A DNA stretch of 64,000 nt from Candidatus Bathyarchaeum tardum (GCA_024650005.2 CP122380.1:1024001-1088000), one strand, 5' to 3'; counted from the first letter of the stretch, positions 825-21,947 are shown. Notes: generated by a model from the sequence alone, not told the origin. Numbers and translations are program-made.

Positions 825-1349
825 TTATACTTTAACTCTGAAGTCTTCTTTTACTACGTTAAGCACAACGTTTGTTACAGTTTTGCTGACATGGGGCATC
901 TTCAATGCTGATTTGATGAAGTTGTTTAATGCACCGCGGTCTTTGAATCGGGCAACAACTGCTACGTCGTAGTCTCCGGTTATGTCATAAATGCAGATTA
1001 CTTCGTCTAGGGCTGCTAGCTGTTTTTCAACCTCAGGAAGATAACTGCCATCAGCTTGAATGAGAATAAGGGATGTTAAACCATAACCAAGCCGAGCAGA
1101 ATCTAAAAGTATGGTGTAACCTTTGAGAATCCCGCTGTCTTCTAGGTTCTTTACGCGATTATATGCTGTTCCAACAGCAATGCCTAGGCTGTCAGCGATT
1201 TTGTTGAAGCTTTTTCTTGCATCTTCTTGCAGTAAACGTATTATTTTTCTGTCGACTTCATCCACTTTATGATGGGAATCGTTATCCAGTTTTTGTTCCT
1301 CCTCATTGAATGATTGTTTATGAACCAAATTATATTTTTTTGTATTCAT
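825..1349 (-). CDS. Lrp/AsnC family transcriptional regulator (HTH + RAM domain), divergent from glnA
   Basis: DEVDRKIIRLLQEDARKSFNKIA HTH and ITGDYDV RAM motif; likely start ATG 1349, since the longer ORF-track start overlaps glnA. Confidence 0.92.
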   Translation of the reverse strand: MNTKKYNLVHKQSFNEEEQKLDNDSHHKVDEVDRKIIRLLQEDARKSFNKIADSLGIAVGTAYNRVKNLEDSGILKGYTILLDSARLGYGLTSLILIQADGSYLPEVEKQLAALDEVICIYDITGDYDVAVVARFKDRGALNNFIKSALKMPHVSKTVTNVVLNVVKEDFRVKV

Positions 1350-1421
1350 GAACACTTGTTCATTAGAACAGGATATATATAAGGTTTCCTTCAACTCTCT
1401 AGAAAAGTTTATATACAAATA
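1349..1421 (+). promoter_or_regulatory. glnA promoter: two operator-like boxes plus BRE/TATA
   Basis: TGAAcacttgTTCA 1349-1362 (within ATGAACA-CT-TGTTCAT inverted repeat), TAAGgtttccTTCA 1380-1393, then AGAAAAG-TTTATATACAAATA 1401-1421; further box TGAAtgattgTTTA 1307-1320. Confidence 0.75.
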
Positions 1422-1461
1422 TGTAATAATTTCAATTTCAATTGAATGAATGGTGAAAGAT

Positions 1462-2919
1462 ATGGATGCTATTACCAAAGCAAAAGAAACCCTGAAAAAA
1501 AACAAAATTCGATGGGTACACACCGCTTTTGTTGATATCCGAGGCCTAATGCAAGACGTAGTTATACCAGCACGCCACTTCACTGAAGGTCAAGCCCTGA
1601 CAGCAGGCATAGGCTTTGACGGTTCATCTGTACGAGGATTCAAAGCCATAAACGAGTCAGACATGATCCTTAAACCCGCTGCAGACACCCTTTCTATTAT
1701 TCCATGGACAACAGACGAAAAACAAAAAAGCGCAATAATCCTAGGAGACGTCTACGAAGCATTCGGAGGCAACCAACCCTCAGTTGTAGACCCCCGAGGA
1801 TATGTAGCAAAAAATGCAGTAAAAGCCGCAGAAGCTATGGGATACACTGGCTTTTTTGGTCCAGAACTAGAATATTTCGTTTTCAAATCAATTGATCCAA
1901 CCACCCTTGTCTGGGACATGTGGGTAAGCCCAAAAGGTGGCTCAGGAGACTCATGGGGAGCACCACGAGTAGTTCCAGTATCTCCCGAAACCACGCCAGG
2001 ATGCCAAGTGCTGCGACCCAAGGAAGCATACTTCCGACCTCCACCTGAAGACACTACAGTTGAATACCGTAATGAAGTTGCATCAATACTTGAAGAAAAC
2101 TTTGACACTGAAATTGAAATGCACCACCACGAAGTCGCTACGGCTGGACAAATTGAAATTGACTTCAAATATGGGGAATTAGTGAAAACAGCTGACCGAA
2201 CTCTCCTTTACAAGTTTGTTGCCAAAAACATTGCAAAACAACATGGTTTAATTGCAACTTTCATGCCCAAACCAGTTTACCTTGACAACGCAAGCGGCAT
2301 GCATGTTCATGCTTCCTTATGGAGCGGAAATACTAACGTCATGTATGACGAAACCGATGAATATGCAGAAATGAGCCAAACAGGCAGATACTTCATCGGA
2401 GGCTTGCTTGACCATGCTCGAGCAATAACTGCAGTCACTTGTCCTACAGTTAACTCTTACAAACGACTTGTTCCAGGATTTGAAGCCCCAATTTTCATTA
2501 TGTGGTCTCGCCGAAACAGGTCAGCAATGATTCGTGTTCCAGTATACTTCAAAGGCCCTGAACATGCAGCAGCCAAACGAGCAGAATTACGTTCCGCGGA
2601 TCCATCATGCAACTCATACTTGGCATTGGCAGTTATCTTAATGGCAGGACTTGACGGCATAAAAAAGAAAACTGAACCCGGAGACCCAGTCGACGAAGAC
2701 GTTTACGAATTACCCACTGAACGCCGAAAAGCCCTTGGAATTCAAGAATTACCAACAACCTTGAAAGATGCATTGGAAGCAATGAAAAGTGACGAAGTAG
2801 TCTTGAAGGCTCTTGGCAGCCACATATTCGATGCATTCATCGACTACAAGACAAATGACTGGAACCAGTTCTGTTTGTATGTAACCCCATGGGAAATAAT
2901 GAAATATCTAGACTATTAA
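1462..2919 (+). CDS. glnA: Glutamine synthetase type I
   Basis: FDGSS, GPELEYF, HHHEVATAGQIEI, ATFMPKP, SGMHVH, NSYKRLVPGFEAP, NRSAMIRVP; GGTGA RBS before ATG 1462. Confidence 0.97.
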   Translation: MDAITKAKETLKKNKIRWVHTAFVDIRGLMQDVVIPARHFTEGQALTAGIGFDGSSVRGFKAINESDMILKPAADTLSIIPWTTDEKQKSAIILGDVYEAFGGNQPSVVDPRGYVAKNAVKAAEAMGYTGFFGPELEYFVFKSIDPTTLVWDMWVSPKGGSGDSWGAPRVVPVSPETTPGCQVLRPKEAYFRPPPEDTTVEYRNEVASILEENFDTEIEMHHHEVATAGQIEIDFKYGELVKTADRTLLYKFVAKNIAKQHGLIATFMPKPVYLDNASGMHVHASLWSGNTNVMYDETDEYAEMSQTGRYFIGGLLDHARAITAVTCPTVNSYKRLVPGFEAPIFIMWSRRNRSAMIRVPVYFKGPEHAAAKRAELRSADPSCNSYLALAVILMAGLDGIKKKTEPGDPVDEDVYELPTERRKALGIQELPTTLKDALEAMKSDEVVLKALGSHIFDAFIDYKTNDWNQFCLYVTPWEIMKYLDY

Positions 2920-2949
2920 AATAAATGATAAGGAGAGAGGTGAATAAAC

Positions 2950-3180
2950 ATGAAAGCGTATCTATTAATCGATACACGACCTGGAACATCCGAGGATGTA
3001 GTCAAAGCCATTAAAATGCGATTCGAAAACGTTCTGCATGTTGACTCAGTATATGGACGCCACGACGTTGTTGCCGTCTTAGAAGCACCAAACCTAGAAG
3101 CCCTCAACGAATTCGTATACAAAGTAATCGAAAAAGACCCCAACATCGTCCACACCGAAACTGCGATTACACTCTTCTAA
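2950..3180 (+). CDS. Stand-alone Lrp/AsnC ligand-binding (RAM) domain protein (demi-FFRP)
   Basis: AYLLI..PG, VYGRHDVVAV, HTET pattern; no HTH; AGGAG RBS. Confidence 0.85.
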   Translation: MKAYLLIDTRPGTSEDVVKAIKMRFENVLHVDSVYGRHDVVAVLEAPNLEALNEFVYKVIEKDPNIVHTETAITLF

Positions 3181-3195
3181 ACAGGAGAGAACAAT

Positions 3196-3456
3196 ATGAC
3201 TCAAAAAGATCTCCGCAGCAAAAAAATCCGGGCGTTCGTACTCGTTACGATGAGACCGGGCACTTCGGAGGAGATCGTACAGTCAAGGAAGATAAAAGGT
3301 ATAAAACTCGCCAATTCAGTTCTGGGACGGTTCGACGCAGTAGCAATAATAGAGGCAGACAATTCAGAGCAACTCGCAGAAATCATCTACGAAATGATGG
3401 AAAAGAACCACAACGTGATTCACACTGAAACATTGCTGTCAATGTTCATACCTTAA
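3196..3456 (+). CDS. Stand-alone Lrp/AsnC ligand-binding (RAM) domain protein, paralog of previous gene
   Basis: AFVLV..RPGTSE, VLGRFDAVAI, IHTETL; AGGAGA RBS. Confidence 0.85.
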   Translation: MTQKDLRSKKIRAFVLVTMRPGTSEEIVQSRKIKGIKLANSVLGRFDAVAIIEADNSEQLAEIIYEMMEKNHNVIHTETLLSMFIP

Positions 3457-3497
3457 ACAAAGTTCCTTGACAAAAACGTTCAACATCCAAAGTGCCA

Positions 3498-3560
3498 AGT
3501 CGGGTCAAAAAAGCCCGCCAATTTCCTTTTTTATTTTCTTTTTCCAAATAATTTCTTTTT
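3498..3560 (+). terminator. Probable terminator of glnA operon
   Basis: Short hairpin (cgggt..gcccg) followed by several T tracts. Confidence 0.5.
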
Positions 3561-3630
3561 AAAATTAACACTTATAGAAAAGTATTTGTTTAGCACCTGC
3601 TTTTTTCAGGGTTTATCAGTGGTGTATAAC

Positions 3631-4431
3631 ATGTCTGCTGAGTTGCTAACTAATGATCAAATCTTTAGGATAATTATCGCACTGGTTATTGTTGGAATTA
3701 CTATTGTTCTTGACAAAGTTATCCGCAGATCAATAACAAGATATGGCCAAAAAACGTGTATGGAACCGCATGCTATTAATATTTTAAAGTTACTCGCAAG
3801 AATACTTGTTGTAGCTGGAGGCGTAGTTTCTCTACTCGGACTTTTTGAAGTGCCCACTGAATGGTTTTTCGGAGCATCAGCACTTACTGGAACCGCTATA
3901 GGTTTTGCTTCCACTCAAACCGTAGGCAATTTCTTGGCTGGTTTCTACATTATGATTTCTAGACCGTTCATGGTACGGGATTACGTAAAAATTGGAGATG
4001 TAGAAGGCGAAGTAACAGAGATAACAATAAACTACACTAAGATTTACACGCCATCATACAACATAACTGAGATTCCCAACAAGAAAGTCTTGGATAGCAT
4101 TATTCGCAACTATTCTGGAACAAAAGACATAATCGATTACTCATTCAAGATGGGCTTCCCCCATTTGGACCACAAAACCAACAAACAGATGATCGAAGAC
4201 TGCATCAAACCCACAATTGAAAAATTCTATGAAAAATACAAAGACATTCTTCCACAGAAACCTGAAGCAAATATGCTTACGATGGATCGCCTTGGACGGG
4301 AAGTAAACATCAGAATGTTTTTCCCTGAAGGGAAAATTAATGACTTCTACAACCTTCAACCTGAACTGATGCGAGATATAATTCACTGCTGGGACAAATT
4401 CAAAACAGGTAAATGTGATAAAAGCTGTTAG
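3631..4431 (+). CDS. mscS: Small-conductance mechanosensitive channel (MscS family)
   Basis: IGFASTQTVGNFLAG, RPFMVRDYVKIGDVEGEV, IPN motifs; likely start ATG 3631. Confidence 0.9.
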   Translation: MSAELLTNDQIFRIIIALVIVGITIVLDKVIRRSITRYGQKTCMEPHAINILKLLARILVVAGGVVSLLGLFEVPTEWFFGASALTGTAIGFASTQTVGNFLAGFYIMISRPFMVRDYVKIGDVEGEVTEITINYTKIYTPSYNITEIPNKKVLDSIIRNYSGTKDIIDYSFKMGFPHLDHKTNKQMIEDCIKPTIEKFYEKYKDILPQKPEANMLTMDRLGREVNIRMFFPEGKINDFYNLQPELMRDIIHCWDKFKTGKCDKSC

Positions 4432-4552
4432 GTTATTCCTAACTTTCACCATTTTTTTGTTTTTCACATAAATCGTTTTTTGTCTGTCACATTTTTCACT
4501 TCACAAGAAGTCATATCTACTTTTTGGCATAAATGCGCAAACGTGAAAAAGA

Positions 4553-5032
4553 ATGCAAAGGAAAAACTTGCTAAAGACTGGAGTGCTTGCAACGTTGTTA
4601 CTTGTTTCAAGTTTTGCTACTGTAGTGTATGCACTTGCATACACAGAGAAACATGAAGTAATCTACAGCAACACCATCACAATTGACGGCCAAGAAGTAA
4701 AGTTCAGGGCATTCTATTTGTCTTCACCTGCAGCGTTTTTTGAAGTCAAACTAACTGTTTCAGAAGGAACAATAAAGTGGACGCCTCACTCTGCAGTGAT
4801 GTTTGACGACACTCAAGGATGGTTCCCCTGTCGATTAGGCAACGACACATTTGGGAAAATCCAAAGATGGGTAAGTGAAACAGACAACGGAACAGTAAGC
4901 TGGCGCGTAGACCAAGAAAACGTTGACATGGTATGGTACATCAACTTGTTCAACCCTGACGACTACGAAAAAGAAGTGCATATCGAAATCATCAAAGTTT
5001 GGGAAACCCAAAACTACAACGAATGGATGTAA
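4553..5032 (+). CDS. Secreted hypothetical protein
   Basis: N-terminal signal-like hydrophobic segment, beta-rich remainder; no family recognised. Confidence 0.7.
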   Translation: MQRKNLLKTGVLATLLLVSSFATVVYALAYTEKHEVIYSNTITIDGQEVKFRAFYLSSPAAFFEVKLTVSEGTIKWTPHSAVMFDDTQGWFPCRLGNDTFGKIQRWVSETDNGTVSWRVDQENVDMVWYINLFNPDDYEKEVHIEIIKVWETQNYNEWM

Positions 5033-5223
5033 CTATCCAAACAAAATTACAAAACACGTTGACAATAAGCAGAAAAACCTGACTAGTTCAGGTTCAACTT
5101 TCTTCTATTTTTTAAAAGAATATCATTATTTTTGGAAGCCAAAAACAATTTACAAACAGCAAAACAATTGAATAAACTTTAATTAAGTCCACGTTTCGCA
5201 AGTTTACTCCTATGTTGCACAAT

Positions 5224-5921
5224 CTATTTCGGTTTGCGGAAATACCATTCCTCTCCATCTGTTTGAACCAAATCCCACCATCATTAATGAATTCAATTCG
5301 TTCCTGTTTGTTGAAGCAATTTGAGTTAGAAATTCCTTTAGTGCTTACCCCATATATCTGCTCATAGACTTCTACATATCGCATTGTAGTTAAGACGCTT
5401 CGGTGTCCCATTATTTTTTTAACATGGGTAAGAAGTCTTGTCCGGTGGTATTCTCTAAGGGCTTTACAATGACGAAATGTATGCACATAAATTTTTAGGA
5501 ATCTTGGGTTATTGTGTTGTCGTGCCAGATTTTTCATTCTGTTTCTGAAAGAGTTGGTTCTTGTGTTTTTTGCTACTTTGGGAAATACGATGTTTTCATT
5601 ATTTTGTAAAGTGTTGAGCATGTTGATTAATTCCTCTGGAACCGGAACGATTCTTTAAACGCCGTTCTTTGACGCTTTCAAGGTCACTAAATTTTTTTCT
5701 TTGTTGATGTCAGCCCATTCGAGTCGTTCAGCTTCTTTGCATAGGGTGCCAGTTTCGTCTAGAAAATGTGAAAATATTATACTTGTCGTGTCACCAATGC
5801 TTTTTGCTAATATACGTTCGGTTTTAGGGGGGATAAAAGGAAATTTATGTTCCGGTCGGTAATTGGGTTTTTCCCAAGTTTTCCAACAAACATTACCTAA
5901 GCAATAAAAACATTTTCCCAT
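5224..5921 (-). pseudogene. Fragmented tyrosine recombinase/integrase
   Basis: ETGTLCKEAERLEWADI (box I, Arg lost), HTFRH, MGHRSVLTTMRY, and frameshifted C-terminus WDLVQTDGEEWYFRKPK*; split over several frames. Confidence 0.85.
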
Positions 5922-6118
5922 CCATGAACATATTTCTGTTTGAAGATTGTCCCATATAATTTTTGAAAAAAATAACTTTTTTTGTTATGATTTTCTTTAG
6001 TTTTTTTCTATATAAAAATTTCATTAGTTTTTAATATCACTTTATTTTCCAGTTAAATGTAAAGATCTTAGTGTCTATGAACATGATAAAAAATCATGAA
6101 AGAATGAATTAAATTTTA

Positions 6119-8437
6119 TTGGAAATTGGGTCTGTTTTGCGAACTCTCAAGGGTTTAAAATTAGTTAAATTATCTAAAAAAGTATTGTTTGTGTTATGTT
6201 TAACAGTTTTAGCAACGAATCTATTAATTCAAACTGGTCCATTATTTGTTAAAGCTCAGGATTTAACTGAGCCAATAATCTCAATAATTTCTCCTACAAA
6301 CCGTGTGTATTCAACAAAAATCATCGACCTAGACTTTAGTGTAAATGAGGAAGTTTCTTGGATTGGTTATAGTTTGGATGGAAAGAGCAATCAAACAATT
6401 GATGGGAACATAACTCTTCCCGAATTGTCTGAAGGAGTTCACACAATAGTTGTTTTCGCGACAGATTTAGCAGAAAACACAGGAAAATCAGATACTATAG
6501 CTTTTGAAGTTTCACTTCCTTTACCGGACAAAGAACCCCCAACAATAACAATTCTCTCGCCCACATCCACCACCTATCCTACCAATGATGTGGAACTAAT
6601 TTTTACAATAAATGAAAAAGTTTCTGTGATAGAGTATAGTTTAGATGGGGCAGAAAATCAACAAATCTCAGGAAACACAACCCTAAAATCATTGTCTGAA
6701 GGTCATCACAAAATAGTTGTTTACGCTACGGACTTGGCAGGAAACACTGGAAAATCAAATCCAATAAATTTCAATATTTCAATTGCTCCACCGGATACAG
6801 AACCCCCAACAATAACAATTCTTTCTCCCGCATCCACCACCTATTTTACTAACGATGTTGACCTAACTTTTACGGTTGATGAACAAGTCTCGTGGACAGG
6901 GTACAGTTTAGATGGCACAGCAAACCAAACTAGCGGCAACACCACATTATCGTCACTATCGGATGGTGTCCACACAATAGTTGTATACGCTACAGACTTG
7001 GCAGAAAACACAGGAAAGTCAAGTATAATTTACTTTGTAGTCTCACTATCCCAACCTGACACGGAAGCTCCAACAATAACAATTCTTTCGCCCACATCGA
7101 CCACCTACTCTACAGGCAATGTGGAGCTTAATTTTACGATAAGTGAGACTGTTTTTTGGATTGGATATAGTTTGGATGGTACAAGCAATCAGACAATTTC
7201 AGGAAATACAATTCTTGCTTCATTGTCAGAGGGAAGTCACAATTTAGCTGTTTATGCCACGGACCTTGCAGGAAACACTGGAAAATCAGATATTATAAAT
7301 TTTGAAGTTGTTATTCCTCCTCCAGACACCGAATCTCCAACAATAAATGTTAATTCACCGCAAAATTTGACTTATTCTTCAAGTAATGTTCCAATTAATT
7401 TGACGGTAAGTGAGGAGACTTTTTGGATTGGTTATAGTGTTGATGGGAATGAAAACGTTACAATTTATGGCAACTATACCATTTGGGCGTTAGGTGATGG
7501 TGTTCATAGTTTGGTTGTTTATGCTACTGATTTGTCGGGAAATACTGGAAAAAGTGATGTTGTTTATTTTTCTGTTGACACGGTGCCTCCTGTTGTGATT
7601 ATTTGGCCGCCGGGAAATGAGACATATCCTAGTTCTGAGGTTGATGTTTATTTTGTTTTTAATGAGGAGCTTTCATGGATTGTTTATAGTTTAGATAGAG
7701 GAAAAAATCAAAGCATAACTGGTAATTTTACTCTTTCGTCTTTGTCTGATGGTCCCCACAGTGTTGTGATTTATTCTGCTGATAAGGTTAATAACACGGA
7801 TAGGTCAAACATTGTTTATTTTTCAGTTGACACGACTCTTCCAGTTGTTAATTTGTTGTCACCTAAAAATGTGACTTATACTACAAATGGTGTTGATTTT
7901 AATTTTAAGGTAGAGGAGGACACTTCCTGGATTGGGTATAGTTTGGATGGGGGGAGTAATCGGACTGTAGATGGTAATTTTACTCTTTCGTCTTTGTCTG
8001 ATGGAGAGCATAGTGTTGTTGTTTATGCTCTGGATGCCAAAAAGGTGAACATGGGAAAGGCTTTTGTTTTCTTTACGGTGGATACGACTCCTCCCGAGGT
8101 TGTGATAAAATCTCCTGTTGATAACAAAACATACACTGATTCAAATAACATAACTTTATCATTTACAGTTAATGAGAAGGGTGTTTTGAAGTATTCTCTT
8201 GATGGGCAAGCTAACATTACTGTTGTGAATTCAACGGTTTTGTATAATTTATCTAATGGGGAACATAATTTGACAATGTTTGCAGAAGATTTGTATGGAA
8301 ACAAGGGTAAAACGGGGACAATTGTTTTTGAGGTGGATTTTGATCGAATACTGAGACCTTTGGAAATTGTTGCTGTTTCAGTAATAATAGTTGCAGCATT
8401 CTCGTTTATAATCATTAAAACATATAAAAATAAATAG
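6119..8437 (+). CDS. Cell-surface protein with about 8 tandem Ig-like repeats and C-terminal membrane anchor
   Basis: ~85-90 aa repeat DTxPPTITILSP..YSLDG..N.T..GN.TL..LSEG.H...VYA.DLAGNTG; signal peptide; C-terminal TM with Lys tail; many NxT/S sequons. Confidence 0.88.
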   Translation: MEIGSVLRTLKGLKLVKLSKKVLFVLCLTVLATNLLIQTGPLFVKAQDLTEPIISIISPTNRVYSTKIIDLDFSVNEEVSWIGYSLDGKSNQTIDGNITLPELSEGVHTIVVFATDLAENTGKSDTIAFEVSLPLPDKEPPTITILSPTSTTYPTNDVELIFTINEKVSVIEYSLDGAENQQISGNTTLKSLSEGHHKIVVYATDLAGNTGKSNPINFNISIAPPDTEPPTITILSPASTTYFTNDVDLTFTVDEQVSWTGYSLDGTANQTSGNTTLSSLSDGVHTIVVYATDLAENTGKSSIIYFVVSLSQPDTEAPTITILSPTSTTYSTGNVELNFTISETVFWIGYSLDGTSNQTISGNTILASLSEGSHNLAVYATDLAGNTGKSDIINFEVVIPPPDTESPTINVNSPQNLTYSSSNVPINLTVSEETFWIGYSVDGNENVTIYGNYTIWALGDGVHSLVVYATDLSGNTGKSDVVYFSVDTVPPVVIIWPPGNETYPSSEVDVYFVFNEELSWIVYSLDRGKNQSITGNFTLSSLSDGPHSVVIYSADKVNNTDRSNIVYFSVDTTLPVVNLLSPKNVTYTTNGVDFNFKVEEDTSWIGYSLDGGSNRTVDGNFTLSSLSDGEHSVVVYALDAKKVNMGKAFVFFTVDTTPPEVVIKSPVDNKTYTDSNNITLSFTVNEKGVLKYSLDGQANITVVNSTVLYNLSNGEHNLTMFAEDLYGNKGKTGTIVFEVDFDRILRPLEIVAVSVIIVAAFSFIIIKTYKNK

Positions 8438-8859
8438 AAAATATTTATCTCCTAATCAAAAAGGGAAAAAAAATTTACAGGGTTAAGAAGCTTTTTTTGG
8501 CAAAGTTTTTTGGTTTTTTAATATAAATTAATATTTATACGAACAACATCGCTTGTTTAAGTTGAAAACTCGATTCAAGATGCCCCATTATAATATTCAA
8601 GATATCTACACGGTTACACACACAGAAACGCCAAATCGGACAAGTGCATGTGCGGTGGGGGTTTCCCTTTGTGATTTTCCGCATAATGTGTGAGGTTGAA
8701 CCATGAAAGATTCTTTATTGTTTGTTAGGTTTTTTCGTCAGTAAAGCAGTTAACTGTGTAGCCATCTGGTTAAGTTTAGCTTCTAATTTTTCCATGAAAA
8801 TTATTAAAAACAAATTTCTATTTATAAATAACGTAACAATTAATAAATTGGCGATAAAT

Positions 8860-10371: not shown

Positions 10372-10477
10372 CTAACATTTAATCTTCTTTTAAAAAAGGG
10401 GCATTTTGCGGAAAAACGTGGCGATATATCCAGCGCTTGGGAAACAACAATTTCCAATAAAATCCGCTAAAAATTAC

Positions 10478-12459: not shown

Positions 12460-12484
12460 AATTCCCATTTTTGGATGAATAGAA

Positions 12485-13159: not shown

Positions 13160-13254
13160 AAAGGTTTATTAACTGTTTGTTGTTTGTTGCTAGTTGTTCC
13201 GATGGGATGTGACCCAATTTTGGGTTGAACCGAAAGAATGTGAGGAATAAAAAA

Positions 13255-13827: not shown

Positions 13828-13945
13828 ACCCGTTTGGGGCTTCCTTTTTGTGGAATCCCCAAATCATATTTTTTATTTTTTTAAGTATCACTTGACATAT
13901 TTATATCAAGTAATGTTATAGGTTTGTATGCGAGAGTGAACATGT

Positions 13946-14392
13946 TTGCCTCAGTTTCCAGTAGCTTATGTTGATGTTCGATTTTGTGCCCACGCCACTG
14001 AAGATGTTGAAAAAGTTATGAAGGCAGTTAGAAACGTTTTGTCAATCAAGAACGAAGAAGATGAAATAGCATTCAATAAAGACAGCCTAGAAGGTCATTA
14101 TGGTAATCCTATTGTTTTTTTTGACGCAAGAATCAAAAACAAAATCGCTATAAAGGCACTAGTTGGTAACCTGTCTGAAAACCTTAGTTCATTTGATAAA
14201 GTTGAATTAAGTTCAACACTGGACCGTTGCTTTGAAAAAGGAAGCATTTACCTGCGAGTGGACAAACAAGCAGCCTTGCAAGGTAAAATTAAACTTGTAG
14301 CCTGTGACCCGATTCGTATTCGTTTGCGTTTCAGAAAAACCAAGCTAGAAGATGTAACTCAAGTCTGTAAAGAAATCGGGATGTTAACATGA
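13946..14392 (+). CDS. Predicted RNA-binding protein of exosome/RNase P superoperon (COG1325)
   Basis: HATED.EKV, EGHYGNPI, YLRVDKQAA; conserved context. Confidence 0.88.
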   Translation: MPQFPVAYVDVRFCAHATEDVEKVMKAVRNVLSIKNEEDEIAFNKDSLEGHYGNPIVFFDARIKNKIAIKALVGNLSENLSSFDKVELSSTLDRCFEKGSIYLRVDKQAALQGKIKLVACDPIRIRLRFRKTKLEDVTQVCKEIGMLT

Positions 14393-15120
14393 AATTTTTT
14401 GCTGATTTGCAGTTACGTGTTCCTCTTAACGATCCTGTTCAAACAAAAAAAATGGTACAAAAAGCTGCACATTTAGGCTACCAAATGTTAGGAATTCCTG
14501 TTCCAGAAAATGCTACCTCGCAACTAATTAGCAACCTCAAAAACATTTGTGCCTCAGCAGATGTTGACTTTGTTTCAAGAGTGAATCTTTCTCCCAGTAA
14601 CTCCAATTCACTTCTCAAAGACTTGCGAAAATACCGAAGAAAATTCGAAATCATATCAGTGAGATGCAACACAAAAGATGTTGCCCGCCAAGCTGCCAAA
14701 GACCGACGAGTAGACCTTTTACAGTTTTCAGTAACCAATATGCGACAAAGGTTTTTTGACAACCAAGAAGCAGAACTTGCCGGAACTGCCCTTTCAGCTC
14801 TTGAAATTGAGTTAGCTCCAATTCTGCAGTTGACGCCCTTGTCTCGGATTTATCTTTTGTCTCGTCTGCGAAAAGAAATTGGAACAGCAAAACGAAGCAA
14901 AGTCCCTGTAATACTATCTAGTGCTGCAACAACTGAACACCTGATGAGAGGACCTTACGATAATGCCGCAGTTACAACCCTTTTTGATTTTTCTGTAGAA
15001 TCTGCGTTGAAGGCATTATCATCAAATGCATTGTTTATCGTTGAACGAAACAGAAAAAAATTGAGCCCTACTTATGTAGCCCCTGGAATACAGGTTCTAG
15101 GACTGAAAAACTGTGATTAA
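14389..15120 (+). CDS. rnp3: Ribonuclease P protein Rpp30
   Basis: PHP-like barrel, RVDLL, PVILSSAA...LMRGP; context. Confidence 0.88.
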   Translation: MKFFADLQLRVPLNDPVQTKKMVQKAAHLGYQMLGIPVPENATSQLISNLKNICASADVDFVSRVNLSPSNSNSLLKDLRKYRRKFEIISVRCNTKDVARQAAKDRRVDLLQFSVTNMRQRFFDNQEAELAGTALSALEIELAPILQLTPLSRIYLLSRLRKEIGTAKRSKVPVILSSAATTEHLMRGPYDNAAVTTLFDFSVESALKALSSNALFIVERNRKKLSPTYVAPGIQVLGLKNCD

Positions 15121-15427
15121 ACGAGAAAAACGTCGCTATTTAGCATTACAAGTTTCAAGTGACCAAAATTTTGAAGAATTTACAGTTTTTAATGCTGTTA
15201 AAAATTCAGTTCTTAGACTTTTTGGAGAATATGGCTCCAGCAAAGCTAATCTAAAACAGCTCAAATATTTTCCCGGAAAAAACCAAATAATTATTCGATG
15301 CTCCCATACAATGCTTGAACAAGTTCGAGCCGCTGTAGCAACAATTATTGAAATAAATGGAAAAACAGCAGCTGTACACGTTAAAGCTGTATCTGGAACT
15401 TTGAAGTCTTTGTCAAAAAAGATATAG
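15113..15427 (+). CDS. rnp2: Ribonuclease P protein Pop5
   Basis: REKRRYL, LFGEYG, IIRC, VSGTLK. Confidence 0.93.
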   Translation: MIKREKRRYLALQVSSDQNFEEFTVFNAVKNSVLRLFGEYGSSKANLKQLKYFPGKNQIIIRCSHTMLEQVRAAVATIIEINGKTAAVHVKAVSGTLKSLSKKI

Positions 15428-15448
15428 AAAAAAAGAATTTTTTATTTA

Positions 15449-18199
15449 TTATGGGTTCTCGATTGTTCGAGTGTTGTATTCATCTATGTAGTTTTGGTTT
15501 TCTATGGTATATGGGTAACTTTCTAGCTCCATGTCATATGGGAAGCAGCTCATTTCGTGGAATGGCAATGGGTCAACGGTAAAATCAACGTAGAATAATC
15601 CGTCAACTTTGAACCATACGCTTGCAAACAGGAAATAATCCCGTTCCATGCCTTCTGGAACTTCAGGCAAGTCATCTACAGAATAATGAAGAACGATTTG
15701 GTCGCCTTGGCGCATTATTACGAATTGGTTGTCGGGGTTATGAAGCAGTTCGGTTACTTCTCCATATCTTGTGAAGTTTCCTGTTGAATTGGAGTTTGTA
15801 GCAAATGCTTGAGTTAAATTAGCAAAATAAACTGGTAATTCGCCAACGATTATCTCTTGTTGTGCTGTTGTGTCAACTGCTATGTAATCAAATTCCGTGT
15901 TGAAGAATGTGTGTATTCTAAGGGCGTAATCTCCTGGCTGGAAAAGTCCTGTTAGGTTTATGGCAAAACAGTCTGGAGTAACATCTAACAACGGGAATTG
16001 TCGATTGTCTGGAACCGGAACCCAATTGCCTTTTGCATCTCTTACTTCCATGTATGGCGGAGGAAACGGTCGTTCACCGGGTTGGTTAAAGAATTGTCCC
16101 GCCCATTCTCCTTGTTCTTCTCCTGTGGAGTAAATGATTGTTCCTGCTACTAACAGTTTGATTTGTTCTGCCTCAGACAAATCTCCTAAATTTAATTCCA
16201 AAGTGTCCCAAGTGAATTCGTTGCCTTTTGTAGTGATTCCATCTCGTTCTGAAACTAAATGCAGCACATTGTGTCCTGTTGAGTTAACGCAAGAAACGGG
16301 CGAAGATGGGTTATTGCTTACGGTGTAGATTGTTCCTTGTTCGTCAAGGTCATATAGATATGTGGCTTTAGTTGAAAACACATCGAATTCTACTGGGTGG
16401 TCAACGTAAACCAAAGTTGCAGAGTCTATGTATGAAATTTCATCCCATTTTTGAATGAGAGTCATATCGTAGAAACCGTTTCGAGGTTCCATTCGGCTGG
16501 CATTTAGTTTAGTATAATCCCAAGGAACACTATACAGGAACAATAAACTTCCATCTTCTTGGAAGTAATCAAAGATGCCAAGATAGCCTGTTCCGTCGGA
16601 TATTTCTGCGGTGTACCAATATTCTTCCCCATTCCAAACATACAAGGAAGGACAAGACTTACAATTCAGATAAGTTGCAGTAAGGGAAACACGATTATTT
16701 AACTCAATAGTTCGGGTAAGACTTGTTGGGCCATCATTCCAACGGGTCCAATTCCACCAAGTGCCTCCCCCTTCAAAACCATCAGGCAATTCAACGATGT
16801 AAGTTCCTTCAGGCAATAATCTTTGATAAGGTGCAGCATAAGTTTCGCCATCTATAGTAAACTCCATTCCAATGGCGTTAACTGAAACAGAAAAGGTATG
16901 GAATCCATCAGGAACAACCTGATAATATCCCGATAAAAAGTTAGTTTGATTTCCCATGTTTACTAGCTGAACCCTGTATCCATCGGGTTTTCCATCATCA
17001 CGGCTGTACGACACAGTGATTGGAACCTCAATTGGAACGTCTGTTGCACCTGAATCTAATGTGAATGTTTTAGTAGTTACAACAACGTCACCAACAAAAA
17101 CCCTTAACTGCAGAGTAGCTTGCTCATTGGCGAAATTATCTGCTTTGGCTTTGACTGTTACAGTTTGTCCGTCCCAAAGCTCGTATGGCGCCACACTTAA
17201 ACTGCGTATAAAAACATCGGCAGATGCAGAAACCGATTGTTCTACAACAAAAATTCCCGACAGGTGGTCTATCTCAACGGTATGTGTCCCAGCTGCGGTT
17301 TCAGTAATTTCAAATTCAACAACTTTGCTTGCAGCTCCAGACAAAGTAACAGTTTTTGTTTCAATTGTTGTGCCGTCAACTGTTAGATTCACATCATAAC
17401 TGCCGCTGCTTTCACCAACATTGGTTACCGTAACTGAAACAGTGACGCTTTCATCATCTAATACTGATGTTGGGTTAATCGTCAAATCAGTGAATTTAAA
17501 CTCAGCCTGTGTAGCAGCTTGGGCGCCAGCAGAAACCCTATACGCTGTGGTTAAGTCACCTGCCTTAACGACATGCTCTCCTTCAATGTCACGGGTGACA
17601 TCAAAAAACACAGTTGTGGTTTCGGTTCCATCTAATTGGATGTTTTGAGTTTCTTGTTTTACATCATTTACGAATAATTCTACTGAAAAATCACCCAGTA
17701 AATCACCAACATTTTTTGCAGTAACAGAAACTGTGATTGTTTCTCCAATGGCAGCCTCAGGGCGACTTACTTTTAGGGCAGACAATTTAAGTTCAGCTGG
17801 CCTTACAGGTTTTTCTAATGTAACCCGGATTGACCCCGTTAAATCATTAACAGTAACTGTGTGATTTCCAATTTCTAATTCTGTGGCTAAGAAAAAAATT
17901 GTTTCAGTTTCTGACGCTGAAAGAGAAACAGTTTCAGTTCCTATTACAACTTCACCAATAGTTAGACGTACTGTATGATTACCTGCTTTGTCTCCAACGT
18001 TAGCTACATCCACTGAGATTTCTACTGGAGTGCCTACTTGAACCCAGTTATAATCAAAATCAAGATTAGTCACCTGAAATTTGGCGGGTTTTGGGATTAA
18101 TGAATCTACGTAGACGTAACTGGGAACTGCAACTGCTAAAATTACCAAAGTTGCAACAAAAATAATTTTTAATTTATTCCGGGTTGACCGAGGAGACAC
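15449..18199 (-). CDS. Membrane-anchored CARDB/Ig-repeat surface protein with large C-terminal SCPxLY domain
   Basis: N-terminal TM; 3-4 repeats of V.V.NVG...G...V.L; C-terminal region SCPSLYVWNG...RDYFL...PLPFHEMS.FPY...YNTR. Confidence 0.8.
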   Translation of the reverse strand: MSPRSTRNKLKIIFVATLVILAVAVPSYVYVDSLIPKPAKFQVTNLDFDYNWVQVGTPVEISVDVANVGDKAGNHTVRLTIGEVVIGTETVSLSASETETIFFLATELEIGNHTVTVNDLTGSIRVTLEKPVRPAELKLSALKVSRPEAAIGETITVSVTAKNVGDLLGDFSVELFVNDVKQETQNIQLDGTETTTVFFDVTRDIEGEHVVKAGDLTTAYRVSAGAQAATQAEFKFTDLTINPTSVLDDESVTVSVTVTNVGESSGSYDVNLTVDGTTIETKTVTLSGAASKVVEFEITETAAGTHTVEIDHLSGIFVVEQSVSASADVFIRSLSVAPYELWDGQTVTVKAKADNFANEQATLQLRVFVGDVVVTTKTFTLDSGATDVPIEVPITVSYSRDDGKPDGYRVQLVNMGNQTNFLSGYYQVVPDGFHTFSVSVNAIGMEFTIDGETYAAPYQRLLPEGTYIVELPDGFEGGGTWWNWTRWNDGPTSLTRTIELNNRVSLTATYLNCKSCPSLYVWNGEEYWYTAEISDGTGYLGIFDYFQEDGSLLFLYSVPWDYTKLNASRMEPRNGFYDMTLIQKWDEISYIDSATLVYVDHPVEFDVFSTKATYLYDLDEQGTIYTVSNNPSSPVSCVNSTGHNVLHLVSERDGITTKGNEFTWDTLELNLGDLSEAEQIKLLVAGTIIYSTGEEQGEWAGQFFNQPGERPFPPPYMEVRDAKGNWVPVPDNRQFPLLDVTPDCFAINLTGLFQPGDYALRIHTFFNTEFDYIAVDTTAQQEIIVGELPVYFANLTQAFATNSNSTGNFTRYGEVTELLHNPDNQFVIMRQGDQIVLHYSVDDLPEVPEGMERDYFLFASVWFKVDGLFYVDFTVDPLPFHEMSCFPYDMELESYPYTIENQNYIDEYNTRTIENP

Positions 18200-18212
18200 A
18201 GCACCAACTCAC

Positions 18213-18233
18213 AAGAATGAAATGTTCATTCTT
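18213..18233. promoter_or_regulatory. Perfect inverted repeat, putative operator of the CARDB gene
   Basis: AAGAATGAA-ATG-TTCATTCTT lies between a minus-strand TTAAATA (18241-18247) and the start codon. Confidence 0.55.
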
Positions 18234-18348
18234 ACTTCAATATTTAAGACCTTCGTAACATAGTTGTTTAAATCAAAAATTGTCAAATTAACATAGAATT
18301 GACCTAAAACTAATTTTGTAGACACGAAAAAATTAGATCAAAACTAAA

Positions 18349-18381
18349 TTAAAAAAGAAAAAGGGTTGCGCCCTTAGGCGC
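18349..18381 (-). terminator. amt terminator
   Basis: GCGCC/GGCGC hairpin followed on the minus strand by a T-rich tract. Confidence 0.6.
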
Positions 18382-18389
18382 TATGAAGT

Positions 18390-19709
18390 TTATTTTTCTT
18401 CCATCATGTCTTCGGGGTATGCTAGGGTCTTGTGTAGTGCGATATCCAGACCGTATAGTTCTGCATCTCGTCCGACACGGAGTAAGTTCGCTTTTTTGAG
18501 GATACCAAACATTACCAGTCCCATTACTGTAGCCCACAGGAATATTGCACCTGCACCGATTGCCTGTATTCCGAGTTGACCAATCCATGTTGTCATGTCC
18601 GCGAATCCATAGATTGGGTGTGCTCCAAGGGCAGTTCCGCCAAAGATTCCAGTTGCTAACAGTCCCCAAACTCCACATGCTGCGTGAACTGGGAAACATC
18701 CTAAAGCGTCGTCAATGTGTAGTTTGTGTTCAAGGACTCCCATCGTGAATGTTGTGATTACTCCTGCGATTATACCGATTACGAACCCTGCTAACGGATG
18801 GACTATGTGGGCTCCGGAACATATTGCAACAGCACCTGCAAGCAAACCAACCATGCTTGTTAGCACATGACCTCTTGAGGTGATTGCTGCTCCGAACATT
18901 CCTCCAGCCATACACATTGCTGTAGTCAGTGAGACCCATGCAAGTTCTACGTTGATTGTCATTGGATCTGCAGCTACGCTTGAGCCAACGTTAAAGCCGA
19001 ACCAACCGAAAGCCAGTAACCATGCACCAATTACAGACAATGGGATGCTGTGTCCAAAGAATGTTCTCGGCATCTTCTTGTCGCCTACGAACTTTCCAAT
19101 CCTTGGTCCAATCATTATTGCACCCATTAATGCAAGTGTTCCACCAACTAGGTGAACTACCCCTGAACCTGCGTAATCGATGAAACCCAGTTCTGATAGC
19201 CAGCCTCCACCCCAGACCCAGTGTTCAACTACGGGGTAGATGAAACCAGAGATTCCTGCAGCTGCAACTATCCAGCCCCAGAATTTGTCACGTTCTGCTA
19301 AACCTCCTGGGACTATACCTACGACGGTAATTGCAAACATTGCCATTTTGAACCATGTTGCAAGGTCGCCTATTCCAGAGGGGCTTGCGGCTAAACCGTA
19401 AGCACCCGTTTCGGACAGCAATGGTGGCAGTGGGTTAGCTATTGTTGGAGCAAACTGTGGAATCCCAAACACAGGTTCAGCTACATAATATGCTAGAGGG
19501 AATCCAATTAGGAAGTACACGACGAATGCGAGTGTCCATCCTACGTTGATTTGCAGTATAGTGTGAGTGACGTTCTTTTTACGGACCATTCCTGCATAGA
19601 ACAAGGCAAATCCTGCAGTTGCCATGATGAAAATGGCTACAGGTGCCCATCCTACGAAAAAGTTCTGCTGGAACGCCGCCCATGTTTCAGTTGCTTGATC
19701 TAACATCAT
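18390..19709 (-). CDS. amtB: Ammonium transporter (Amt family)
   Basis: LAER, YPVVEHWVWGGGWL, DYAGSGVVH, GPRIGKF, GWFGFN, DDALGCFPVH, ELYGLD; twin His present. Confidence 0.97.
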   Translation of the reverse strand: MMLDQATETWAAFQQNFFVGWAPVAIFIMATAGFALFYAGMVRKKNVTHTILQINVGWTLAFVVYFLIGFPLAYYVAEPVFGIPQFAPTIANPLPPLLSETGAYGLAASPSGIGDLATWFKMAMFAITVVGIVPGGLAERDKFWGWIVAAAGISGFIYPVVEHWVWGGGWLSELGFIDYAGSGVVHLVGGTLALMGAIMIGPRIGKFVGDKKMPRTFFGHSIPLSVIGAWLLAFGWFGFNVGSSVAADPMTINVELAWVSLTTAMCMAGGMFGAAITSRGHVLTSMVGLLAGAVAICSGAHIVHPLAGFVIGIIAGVITTFTMGVLEHKLHIDDALGCFPVHAACGVWGLLATGIFGGTALGAHPIYGFADMTTWIGQLGIQAIGAGAIFLWATVMGLVMFGILKKANLLRVGRDAELYGLDIALHKTLAYPEDMMEEK

Positions 19710-19719
19710 TCATCACCAT

Positions 19720-20460
19720 TTATTCATTTCCGAACCAAACGGGCTTCAGTGAGAAGGGTATTTCTTCTACGGACAATCCACCCGCTTTGATGTTCAGTTT
19801 TAATACTTGAGGTTTCATGGGAACACTTCGCGCCTTTTTAATAAGGAAAACGCGTGTCCAGACTACGTCGTGTTTTCGGTAGTCAAGGTAAATCAAATGG
19901 TCTACAAGGTATTCGGTAATGCCAGGGGTTGCAGGAATGCCTTCGGCACTAAATAGTGTGGTTGCTCCTTGGGCTTTGGTTTCCATTAGTATCTTCATGA
20001 AGACTTGTCGGAATTCTTTTGAATCAGATAAACGCCTTGCAAGAGAAGATAACGAGTCGATTACAATCCTAACGGCACTTGGCTGGGCTTTCAATCCTCT
20101 TGTAACTATGTCCATTGCTTCTGTTTTGTCTACAAGACAATACTCGCTAGCATAGCTTGCAGTGATTGAAAGGTTAACTACTTTTATTGTTCCATTTTGA
20201 ATTAGTTTTGGGAAATCGGACCAGAGCTCTCCTCCGGTTCGCATTACTGTTTCGGGGGTTTCCTCGGTTGTGATGTACAAGCATTTTTCGCCATTTTTTG
20301 CGCCTTTGTAAAGAAATTGCAAACAACTAATGGTCTTGCCAGTACCTGGTTCACCGCGCACTAGTATTGCATCGCCCTTTGGGATTCCTGGAATGAACTT
20401 ATCCAAGCCATCCATTCCGATGTCAACCCATTCAATATTTGATGTTTGTTGCATTACCAT
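19720..20460 (-). CDS. Single-domain KaiC-like (RecA superfamily) ATPase, operonic with amt
   Basis: Walker A GEPGTGKT, TTEE, Walker B RIVIDSLS, EYLVD, KARS; stop 10 nt from the amt start. Confidence 0.92.
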   Translation of the reverse strand: MVMQQTSNIEWVDIGMDGLDKFIPGIPKGDAILVRGEPGTGKTISCLQFLYKGAKNGEKCLYITTEETPETVMRTGGELWSDFPKLIQNGTIKVVNLSITASYASEYCLVDKTEAMDIVTRGLKAQPSAVRIVIDSLSSLARRLSDSKEFRQVFMKILMETKAQGATTLFSAEGIPATPGITEYLVDHLIYLDYRKHDVVWTRVFLIKKARSVPMKPQVLKLNIKAGGLSVEEIPFSLKPVWFGNE

Positions 20461-20500
20461 GTCGATCACTTCTTATTCAATTAAATTGCTAGATATTGAC

Positions 20501-20572
20501 TATTTGTATATAAATATTTCTTTTTTATTGAATGATTGTTTAGTGCTGAAGTTAACATTGAATGAACGTTCA
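20501..20572 (-). promoter_or_regulatory. Promoter of KaiC-like/amt operon with paired boxes
   Basis: Plus-strand TGAAtgattgTTTA 20529-20542 and TGAAtgaacgTTCA 20559-20572; minus-strand TTTATATACAAATA 20514-20501. Confidence 0.75.
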
Positions 20573-21094
20573 AAATTGCATAAAATATTATAATGTGGAT
20601 GAATTTTGCGTTAAAATTTAATAAAAATTGGAATTTTTTCTGATAAAAATTAAACCATAAAAATTATGTTAAATGAAAATAGTTTAAGTTGAAAAAATAT
20701 ACATGTTCATGTTTACAAAAGGCGTAAAAAAAGCGGATAAAAAACCGAGATAATTATGTGTTGTTGGGCTTGGAAACAATTAAAGCTGTTCCCACACTGG
20801 GGTCTAAGGCTGTGGACCCTGACCAGATAAACGTAACAAACTGAAACTAGATGAGGCGAGTCACGTTGGCTGTGATCCGGATCCACAGTTTAAGCCAAAT
20901 TATGGTATTACCATTTAAAATAAAAGTGTTACTGTTTTACTATAAAATGAAAGACAATAATATTAACGGTTTAATTAAACCTCAGCGTTTGTACAGGAAA
21001 TTTGGAATTGATTATTTTTAGTATAAACAATTTTTTTAGAGAGGAAAAATAGAGAACCTCATTGGGGGAGCATGAAGTTCCTGTTGGAAGTGAA

Positions 21095-21835
21095 TTATAT
21101 TTTGCTTTGGAACCACACAGGGTTAAGGGCAAATGGGGTTTCTTCTACTGACAGTCCGCCTTTTTGAATGTACAGTTTTAGTATCTGTGGCTTGAGAGGT
21201 ACGCTTCGGGATTTTCGCAGAATGAAAACTCGAGTCCATTCTGTGTCTTGTTTTCGGTAGTCGAGATATACTAAGTGGTCTACGAGGTATTCGGTGATGT
21301 CGGGGGTCATGGGGATGCCTTCTGCTGTTAGTACTACTGTTGCGTTTTTTTGTTTGGTTTCCAGTAGCAATTTCATGAAGACTTCTCGAAATTCTTCGTA
21401 GTCAGACAGCCGCTGATCTAACGAAGACAACGAATCAATTACGATTCTAGATGCCCCTGGTTGAGTGGCAAAGCCTGTTTCAGCGATTTTCATTGCTTCT
21501 GCTTTTCCTAGTAAGCCATATTCGTTAGCGCATTCGCCAGTTATGGACATGTTTACAAATTTGATTACTCCCTTTTCAACTAATTTGGGGAACTCGGGCC
21601 ATAGCTCTGCTCCTGTTCGTAGTATTGATTCTGGGGTTTCTTCTGTTGTAATGTAGAGGCATTTTTCTCCATTTTTTGCGCCTTGATACAGGAATTGTAA
21701 GCAAACTATAGTTTTACCTGTGCCGGGATCGCCGCGCACTAGTATTGCATCGCCTTTTGGGAGTCCTGGAATGAAATCCTCTAGTCCAGATACGCCAAAG
21801 TCGATCCATTCTATGTTTGATGTTTTTTGACTCAT
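21095..21835 (-). CDS. Second KaiC-like ATPase, close paralog of 19720-20460
   Basis: GDPGTGKT, TTEE, RIVIDSLS, EYLVD, KSRS; colinear and highly similar over full length. Confidence 0.92.
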   Translation of the reverse strand: MSQKTSNIEWIDFGVSGLEDFIPGLPKGDAILVRGDPGTGKTIVCLQFLYQGAKNGEKCLYITTEETPESILRTGAELWPEFPKLVEKGVIKFVNMSITGECANEYGLLGKAEAMKIAETGFATQPGASRIVIDSLSSLDQRLSDYEEFREVFMKLLLETKQKNATVVLTAEGIPMTPDITEYLVDHLVYLDYRKQDTEWTRVFILRKSRSVPLKPQILKLYIQKGGLSVEETPFALNPVWFQSKI

Positions 21836-21875
21836 GCTGATCACATCTCATTCAATTAATTGTCTAGATATTGAC

Positions 21876-21947
21876 TATTTGTATATAAGTATTTCTTTTT
21901 TACTGAACATTTTTTTATACTTGCTTTTATAACTGAATATTTATTCA
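21876..21947 (-). promoter_or_regulatory. Promoter of second KaiC-like gene with paired boxes
   Basis: Plus-strand TGAAcattttTTTA 21904-21917 and TGAAtatttaTTCA 21934-21947; minus-strand CTTATATACAAATA 21889-21876. Confidence 0.72.

Follow-up and report, generated by a model that had tools for sequence, protein, structure and literature searches.

A 64,000-nucleotide stretch of the Candidatus Bathyarchaeum tardum genome (GCA_024650005.2 CP122380.1:1024001-1088000; hereafter the window) contains three promoters, preceding glnA and two genes for KaiC-like ATPases, which share a fixed arrangement of boxes of the form TGAA-N6-TTCA. The 14-bp palindrome TGAAYRNNYRTTCA, which is conserved at fixed positions in the promoters of nitrogen genes, is probably the operator of the Lrp/AsnC regulator that is encoded divergently from glnA. 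The host genome (label G000) is a single contig of 2,152,572 bp with 38% G+C and is 97.9% complete, and a Pfam search of the window confirmed the Lrp/AsnC regulator (tested as 825-1349), glutamine synthetase (GS), the ammonium transporter Amt and two single-domain KaiC-like ATPases. The features concerned are listed below by window position; promoter offsets are counted from the start of the TATA box, BRE denotes the transcription factor B (TFB) recognition element and SD the Shine-Dalgarno sequence.

825-1289, minus strand: lrp, Lrp/AsnC-family regulator, predicted start CTG 1289, 154 aa; conservative core from GTG 1265
1307-1320, no strand assigned: Box A, TGAATGATTGTTTA, with one degenerate half-site; 42 bp from Box B, within the 5' leader predicted for lrp
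1349-1362, no strand assigned: Box B, perfect palindrome TGAACACTTGTTCA, lying at -59 with respect to the start of the glnA TATA and, read towards lrp, 12 nt past the lrp TATA
1373-1393, minus strand: predicted lrp BRE/TATA (GGAAACCTTATATATAT on the minus strand) with an upstream TGAA; the BRE plus TATA reading also applies in other families
1401-1415, plus strand: glnA BRE/TATA, AGAAAAG TTTATATA, invariant in the genus
1443-1456, plus strand: leader element TGAATGAATGGTGA, in which a TGAA half-site (+35 relative to the start of the glnA TATA) precedes the SD GGTGA at 1452-1456
1462-2919, plus strand: glnA, glutamine synthetase, start ATG 1462 after the SD; Pfam Gln-synt_C (415 bits) and Gln-synt_N
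18390-19709, minus strand: amt, ammonium transporter, 10 nt downstream of KaiC1; Pfam Ammonium_transp (313 bits)
19720-20460, minus strand: KaiC1, KaiC-like ATPase with a single domain; ATG 20460, preceded by the SD GTGATC, is the likely start; Pfam PF06745 (148 bits)
20476-20572, minus strand: KaiC1-amt class I promoter, with distal box 20559-20572, proximal box 20529-20542, TATA 20507-20514 and the +35 TGAA at 20476-20479
21095-21835, minus strand: KaiC2, KaiC-like ATPase and paralogue of KaiC1 (69.5% identical by tblastn), likely start ATG 21835; Pfam PF06745 (146 bits)
21851-21947, minus strand: KaiC2 class I promoter, with distal box 21934-21947, proximal box 21904-21917, TATA 21882-21889 and the +35 TGAA at 21851-21854

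A letter-by-letter reading of the three promoters recovered all of the boxes, spacings and the shared 16-mer that an initial annotation of the window had reported. At glnA, KaiC1-amt and KaiC2 alike, a perfect box lies 58-59 bp upstream of the TATA start, a half-degenerate box lies at -28 and a TGAA half-site at +35, a layout here termed class I. At glnA the proximal box TAAGGTTTCCTTCA (plus strand, 1380-1393) follows the distal box after 31 bp and is itself followed, after a 14-nt gap, by TTTATATACAAATA at 1408-1421 and, in the leader, by AATTGAAT at 1440-1447. The distal and proximal boxes of the KaiC1-amt promoter are 30 bp apart, with TTTATATACAAATA at 20501-20514 and AATTGAAT at 20475-20482, while the KaiC2 promoter has CTTATATACAAATA at 21876-21889. 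The 16-mer ATTGAATGATTGTTTA, identical at 1305-1320 and 20527-20542, includes Box A and thus recurs in the KaiC1-amt promoter. KaiC1 and amt likely form one operon.

The combined pattern TGAA-N6-TTCA-N26/27-TTCA-N14-YTTATATA matches three times in the window and not once in any of 100 dinucleotide shuffles. A genome-wide scan at fixed TATA distances, a check of the kind that the initial annotation had put forward, covered 93 YTTATATA sites, and perfect boxes at offsets 58-59 were found exactly at glnA, KaiC1 and KaiC2. Boxes with at most one mismatch near YTTATATA numbered five at offsets 57-59 and three at offset 28, compared to 0-1 at each other offset from 20 to 120. The plain TGAA-N6-TTCA string was rejected as a regulon marker, as its 154 genomic copies are at the background level given by spacings of 0-12 (78-179 copies). 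Conversely, the refined palindrome TGAAYRNNYRTTCA, in which the perfect core is combined with the inner YR..YR (pyrimidine-purine) letters derived from genus footprints, has 11 copies, nine non-coding and two coding; by crude longest open reading frame (ORF) calls, on which all genome-wide coding statistics are based, this makes 82% non-coding against 16.6% of the genome. Perfect-core copies with three or fewer inner matches are 15-21% non-coding, which equals background, and permuted half-sites yielded 0-8 copies, of which 0-3 were non-coding. Only the version with the inner YR..YR is specific.

Phylogenetic footprinting, likewise proposed at the outset, was performed on 22 glnA promoters and 16 KaiC1 loci of the genus; 14 of the latter have their own promoter, while in two KaiC2 and KaiC1 are fused into one operon without a promoter between them. 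Box B is perfect and at -59 in all 22 glnA promoters, with variable flanks and N6 spacer; the -28 element ends in TTCA in 22/22, the TGAA at +35 is present in 21/22, and the SD and ATG 1462 are conserved. At KaiC1, 12 of the 14 promoters carry a perfect distal box at -58; in another the box is at -57, and in the remaining one its left half is lost. The half-sites are kept even though the N6 spacer differs in nearly every genome, yet is always YR..YR. The proximal box reads ATTCA in 14/14 (shifted by one base in one), and TGAA occurs at +35 in 13/14. The KaiC2 layout is kept in both relatives with readable KaiC2 upstream DNA, the distal box being perfect in one of them. Box A matches seven of the eight core letters and has the inner YR..YR; TTGAATrATT is partly conserved in the genus.

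The proposal of a coherent nitrogen regulon was extended by conserved boxes before a gltB-related gene, a glutamate synthase (GOGAT) operon, an Asn-synthase-like (asnB-like) gene and a partner operon of small ORFs. When 2602 TATA-like sites were scanned for the composite layout, six had at least three of the four class I features, as opposed to 0-1 in each of six shifted-register controls; these six are glnA, KaiC1, KaiC2, the asnB-like gene, site 796740 (+) and site 46262 (-). The asnB-like gene (Asn_synthase domain, G000 745644-746630, -) has TAAATTATTGTTCA with one changed letter at -59, AGAACGTTCGTTCA at -28, the 14-nt gap, TTTATATA and TGAA at +35. Site 796740 drives a 31-aa ORF ending in EPWYFIHY and a 74-aa zinc-ribbon ORF (CxxC...CxxC) at G000 796799-797145 (L292 200-546, +). 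Homologues of the zinc-ribbon ORF (33-43% identity, E 1e-8 to 1e-14) lie directly upstream of the asnB-like gene in eight genus genomes, whereas in G000 the small-ORF pair (ending EPWYF(T/I)H, plus zinc ribbon) is separate from that gene and has its own class I promoter; the small-ORF/asnB operon promoters of the eight relatives are also class I, with TGAA at +35 in 8/8. The gltB-related gene (Glu_synthase-related, G000 304825-306414) has a perfect box 148 nt upstream, kept in 21 of 22 genus genomes, and a second box, TGAATGTTTGATGT, 41 bp downstream of the first, the two lying at -80 and -39. The GOGAT operon (G000 222088-227240) encodes ferredoxin, Pyr_redox_2, GATase_2, Glu_synthase (457 bits) and GXGXG domains, and its box, which abuts the BRE, has one mismatch in G000; among the 22 genus genomes it is perfect in four relatives, TGAAnGTTCTTTCA in two and degenerate in the rest. 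The functions behind the boxes are thus GS, Amt, two GOGAT-type units and an Asn-synthase-like gene; four promoter families without similarity outside the elements have the layout in common, and every product that could be identified has its place in ammonium assimilation.

These promoters bear on the alternative that the shared layout reflects inherited promoter sequence (by duplication) and core-promoter signals rather than a regulator site. The KaiC1 and KaiC2 promoters are indeed plain duplicates, as the initial annotation had recognised, and TTATATACAAA occurs only six times in the genome, so that part of the likeness represents a strong-promoter consensus. Furthermore, the glnA -28 box coincides with the predicted BRE/TATA of the lrp promoter: on the minus strand it reads TGAAGGAAACCTTATATAT, which matches the local BRE/TATA consensus cGAAAnn-TTTATATA, as it does in other families, where this consensus is also seen, and TATATAAGCTTTCCTTCA is near-invariant in this region within the genus. 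Because the same letters would constitute the lrp BRE/TATA, conservation of the -28 box at glnA is not independent evidence of a second Lrp site. Nevertheless, the KaiC1 half-sites persist while the spacer between them changes in almost every genome, the glnA, asnB-like, small-ORF and gltB-related promoters are dissimilar outside the elements yet have the same offsets, and the palindrome is strongly enriched in non-coding DNA, and we regard an origin from duplication and core-promoter signals as extremely improbable.

The candidate regulator itself required a revised gene start. The coordinates first given for lrp, 825-1349, were not upheld, as a leaderless start at ATG 1349 is not conserved in the genus, where the triplet before the box is CAT, CGT, TGT or TAT. 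A start at GTG 1265 was also rejected since the peptide upstream of it is conserved in frame; this codon is retained only as the beginning of the conservative core. The start is most likely CTG 1289, because a conserved GGAGG lies 8 nt upstream of it (1298-1302), CTG, TTG and ATG alternate at this position among 19 genus loci (CTG in the window genome, TTG or ATG in relatives), and the ensuing peptide KLxYDSxHK-VDE is conserved in frame in the same loci; Box A consequently falls within the predicted lrp leader. The protein has an N-terminal AsnC-type helix-turn-helix domain (PF13404, 50 bits) and a C-terminal RAM/AsnC ligand domain (AsnC_trans_reg, PF01037, 58 bits), and aligns over its full length with the FL11, Grp and LrpA structures, consistent with membership of the Lrp/AsnC (feast/famine regulatory protein, FFRP) family. 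Its best match in the PDB is 8q90 (E 7e-29), the sequence of which is acidic and appears haloarchaeal, while FL11 is the closest solved relative with DNA (E 9e-27) and Poseidoniales proteins are the closest matches outside Bathyarchaeia (44-45% identical).

Archaeal TATA boxes are usually centred near -26 from the transcription start. Given this spacing, and since the palindrome at 1349-1362 begins 12 nt after the lrp TATA, the lrp transcript is predicted to start inside the palindrome, near 1352 on the minus strand; the starts predicted for glnA and KaiC1 are near 1437 and near 20485. The box holds this autoregulatory position, 10-13 nt past the predicted lrp TATA, within the genus and in other families, even when lrp has a neighbour other than glnA. 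Autorepression of lrp, which had previously been deduced from boxes covering its own TATA and start, is thus plausible, albeit for a different reason, namely the perfect palindrome downstream of the TATA, over the predicted transcript start, at a position maintained across families.

The identity of the binding protein was addressed in an order-wide set of 151 genomes, in which an lrp orthologue was found in 109, with lrp and glnA as divergent neighbours across the order, while NrpR (called by PF01995 at the Pfam cut-off) was present in only 29, namely in 17 of 18 within the genus and in few elsewhere. Sixty lrp-upstream regions from outside the genus were collected, 42 of them from orthologues with at least 53% identity, and 29 of these 42 have glnA as the divergent neighbour. 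A perfect box is present in 22 of the 29 lrp-glnA regions (5/5 from NrpR-positive genomes, 2/2 with partial NrpR and 15/22 from NrpR-negative genomes), and five further NrpR-negative genomes, reached via their lrp loci, have box-bearing lrp promoters. In the 13 regions where the orthologue lies away from glnA, a TATA is followed after approximately 10 nt by a box like TGAACAAATGTTTA, which is perfect in one and has a single mismatch in five. Additionally, in six genomes of the same family without an lrp orthologue the only glnA is a distant one (39-40% identity), not adjacent to any lrp and with a perfect box in 0/6. In one relative (G019), a paralogue of lrp (73% identity) stands divergent to the asnB-like gene and has a glnA-type promoter with a perfect box. 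The first tier of lrp orthologues has TGAAYR boxes and the tier at 42-47% identity AACATTTGTT-type boxes; variants with N5 or N7 also occur. As 15 NrpR-negative genomes keep the perfect box, and as it stays with lrp away from glnA, Lrp is the likely binder, and the box appears to travel with lrp rather than with NrpR. Comparative genomics therefore favours the neighbouring Lrp over NrpR as the putative binder, which sustains that part of the original proposal of Lrp as the regulator of these boxes.

The competing possibility is that the boxes are operators of NrpR-type repressors, as a T/A-ended variant of GGAA-N6-TTCC released by 2-oxoglutarate under nitrogen limitation, with lrp as a member of the regulon. 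The genome encodes two NrpR paralogues of 325 and 336 aa (PF01995, 247 and 239 bits; G000 204347-205324, L141 1492-2469, -, and G000 1956793-1957803, L142 1492-2502, -), each with a winged helix-turn-helix and one NRD domain; gdhA is directly followed by one of them, and the other lies beside, and is divergent from, a TFB gene, and in two relatives an NrpR gene adjoins the gltB-related gene. The geometry, an inverted repeat of 4 bp-N6-4 bp, is identical to that of GGAAN6TTCC as described in passages of a preprint (bioRxiv 10.1101/2024.03.05.583561), and the known targets of methanogen NrpR (glnA and nitrogen-assimilation genes) overlap with those found here. The outer base differs, however, and the boxes persist in the NrpR-less genomes enumerated above and accompany lrp when it is away from glnA. 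GGAA-N6-TTCC itself has 59 copies in the genome, six of them non-coding and none at a nitrogen gene. Moreover, the NrpR operators known lie at or after the transcription start, whereas the boxes lie upstream of the BRE/TATA at most promoters, including those of glnA, KaiC and the asnB-like gene. Recognition by NrpR is accordingly judged improbable. The presence of two NrpR-type genes in a Bathyarchaeia genome, patchily distributed in the order, contrasts with the statement in a 2012 paper, as given in passages of that source, that NrpR appeared restricted to Euryarchaeota (PMC3584215).

Several points weigh against the assignment of the box to Lrp. Seven of the 22 NrpR-negative lrp-glnA regions lack a perfect box (three of these seven have a one-mismatch box); the site is an even 14-bp palindrome, in contrast to the 13-bp form obtained for archaeal Lrp-type sites by in vitro selection (SELEX), and its 4-N6-4 geometry is that of NrpR operators in a genome with two NrpR paralogues; and only two of the six FL11 DNA-contact positions are identical in this Lrp (L24/A34/E35/S36/T37/H39 in FL11 against F/A/V/G/T/Y). 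The fixed box-TATA distance and the -28 box at glnA could be by-products of a compact divergent promoter, the gene calls behind the genome-wide statistics are crude, and the relatives are not independent, such that footprint counts overstate the number of independent events. Lastly, the support consists of sequence comparison; seven public RNA runs, each with 5-6% of the sampled words and available as contigs only, were uninformative on expression, habitat and transcription starts.

The palindrome could also be recognised by a different transcription factor, such as another Lrp-like or winged helix-turn-helix protein, with the glnA-linked lrp being merely a target. Lrp and box are linked by guilt by association only, 35 Lrp-like candidates were counted in the genome at first look, the even 14-bp site departs from the characterised 13-bp form, and a perfect box (1860911) lies 2 nt before the start of an HTH_3 regulator gene (G000 1860926-1861363). 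Conversely, in every family examined the box lies between the lrp TATA and the lrp start, even away from glnA, which is the classic autoregulatory position of the family; the lrp paralogue recruited beside the asnB-like gene has the same box, and the same-family genomes without an lrp orthologue, with their distant glnA, have no perfect box. A different factor thus seems rather unlikely, and the Lrp encoded beside glnA remains the preferred candidate.

Under this assignment, a mechanism may be proposed. The elements at -59, -28 and +35 are phased by 31 and 63 bp at glnA, KaiC1, KaiC2 and the asnB-like gene, and boxes are 41-42 bp apart at lrp and the gltB-related gene; the helical phasing expected of Lrp-type sites, with two to three turns from centre to centre, is found. 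Lrp dimers would occupy the boxes in a cooperative manner along one helical face and, from the -28 site near the BRE, would stimulate TATA-binding-protein and TFB recruitment at class I promoters, leading to activation, while at the box over the lrp start they would stand in the way of RNA polymerase and cause autorepression. Between the divergent lrp and glnA, Lrp bound at the -28 site would mask the lrp TATA and activate glnA at the same time. In the case of the GOGAT operon, where the box abuts the BRE, activation and repression are both possible.

This scheme may be compared with characterised archaeal Lrp proteins. Passages of a review (PMC2995911) describe sites spaced by two to three helical turns on one DNA face, activation by Ptr2, LysM and Ss-LrpB through a dimer site located a few bp ahead of the BRE and assisted by auxiliary sites upstream, and repression by LrpA of its own gene from a site bordering the downstream side of the TATA. 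By these rules class I promoters would fit an activator layout, with a site a few bp upstream of the BRE plus a phased upstream site, and the lrp promoter, with its box on the downstream side of the TATA, an autorepressor layout. In agreement with the Ptr2-type constraint, all class I promoters have 14 bp between the end of the -28 box and the TATA start, except for 13 bp in the small-ORF operon. The third phased half-site at +35 lies outside the layouts described in those passages.

The closest functional parallel is that of haloarchaea. In Halobacterium salinarum, the Lrp OE3923F is encoded next to glnA, and its overexpression induces glnA whereas its deletion reduces glnA, according to passages of PMC2894021; an lrp-glnA arrangement is common in haloarchaea, as passages of PMC8229911 state. 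As with this protein and its Haloferax mediterranei orthologue, the Lrp/AsnC gene described here adjoins glnA in the opposite direction. Unlike here, the passages on the haloarchaeal protein define no operator sequence or fixed promoter layout, and the predicted regulon of this different archaeal phylum adds amt with KaiC-like ATPases, GOGAT units and the Asn-synthase-like operon. Sa-Lrp of Sulfolobus acidocaldarius responds to glutamine and binds to the control regions of glnA, gltB and gdhA, as passages of PMC3584215 report, and both Sa-Lrp and Grp ST1022 of S. tokodaii are glutamine-responsive Lrp-family proteins tied to central nitrogen metabolism; similarity to them is only 1e-19, however, and the passages available describe Sa-Lrp as architectural with no defined palindrome. 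FL11 (PH1519, Pyrococcus OT3) binds TGAAA[AAT/ATT]TTTCA via the loop that connects helices 2 and 3 and controls its own promoter, and four archaeal Lrp-type proteins studied by SELEX have 13-bp sites of the form abcde-WWW-edcba, as set out in passages of PMC2715240. The TGAA half-site recurs here, and the Lrp described here retains Ala34 and Thr37, the residues that read the outer T, while its putative site is 14 bp (N6) rather than 13 bp (TGAA-N5-TTCA), four of six contact residues differ, and the FL11 regulon is that of lysine biosynthesis.

Four of the five glutamine contacts of Grp are shared (Y77/D102/T132/T134 here for Y75/D100/T129/T131), with G32 in place of S32. These residues were rejected as an indicator of glutamine as the effector, since they occur in FL11 as well and are not diagnostic (the Tyr is also present in this lysine-responsive protein). 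By analogy with the systems above, an amino acid such as glutamine may be guessed to be the effector. A literature search on Bathyarchaeia in combination with Lrp, glutamine synthetase or NrpR found nothing on nitrogen regulation in this lineage.

PII/GlnK (PF00543) was not found in the whole 97.9%-complete single-contig genome, although the same search was positive in 13 of 14 reference genomes. In this genome without PII, a gene for a KaiC-like ATPase stands before amt and a second paralogue lies upstream; the gene order KaiC2-KaiC1-amt is kept in the genus, and a second amt is found upstream of KaiC2 in one relative (G022). That second amt occupies the position of the 826-nt non-coding region 21948-22773 of the window, a 50-nt piece of which recurs at G000 145279-145328. 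The 522-nt non-coding spacer between KaiC2 and KaiC1 (20573-21094) has a G+C-richer patch near 20760-20900; it was rejected as a non-coding RNA, matching the closest relative at only 79% identity over 141 nt and one other relative over 56 nt. No Rfam family reached its gathering score in a scan of the window.

Elsewhere in the genome, a 22-nt element, CGGCAATAGGTTGCCGTAT(G/A)CC, lies approximately 24 nt after the TATA in both GOGAT-type leaders (G000 222033-222054, L234 about 134-155; G000 304767-304788, L143 about 468-489). It is near-unchanged in 21 of 22 genus GOGAT-operon leaders, with a close variant in the gltB-related leaders, and contains the palindrome GGCAA-N4-TTGCC. The two leaders have no relevant Rfam match at E <= 1 and fold no better than shuffles (z = -1.4 and -1.0), and the element could be an RNA signal or an operator of another factor such as NrpR. 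The class I-like promoter at 46262 (G000 46162-46324, L293 about 4160-4325, -), with AGAATATATATTCA at -28 and TGAA at +35, precedes only a 33-aa ORF, upstream of a 321-aa ORF that reads as a mevalonate kinase by its sequence (no family search was made). A small protein or an RNA may be expressed from this promoter, or the promoter may be spurious. Besides that of the HTH_3 regulator gene, perfect boxes precede genes for a DUF996 membrane protein (G000 393729-394547) and a DsrE-like protein (881046-881575), and others lie at 1515026 and at 484601, the latter flanked by a DUF1616 protein gene and a gene for an NAD-dependent sugar epimerase/dehydratase and without evident connection to nitrogen metabolism.

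Bathyarchaeia are archaea that abound in sediments and for which experimental genetics hardly exists. The analysis provides a concrete operator (TGAAYRNNYRTTCA), a candidate regulator, fixed promoter geometries and a candidate regulon comprising lrp, glnA, KaiC1-amt, KaiC2, two GOGAT-type units and the Asn-synthase-like gene with its small-ORF partners, all of which may be tested with recombinant protein and genomic DNA and thus without a genetic system. It also flags a genome with Amt and NrpR homologues and without a PII protein. A speculative and rather doubtful extension is that in Bathyarchaeia an Lrp-type amino-acid sensor, instead of PII or NrpR, would act as the master switch of ammonium assimilation, turning on the GS, Amt and Asn-synthase genes through a three-point, helically phased grip (-59, -28 and +35), while co-induced KaiC-like ATPases would replace PII as partners of the ammonium transporter. 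Overall, the comparisons yield a well-supported in silico regulon and predicted operator for an Lrp-glnA control already known from haloarchaea and Sulfolobus, rather than a new principle, and the haloarchaeal lrp-glnA gene pair extends deep into another archaeal phylum.

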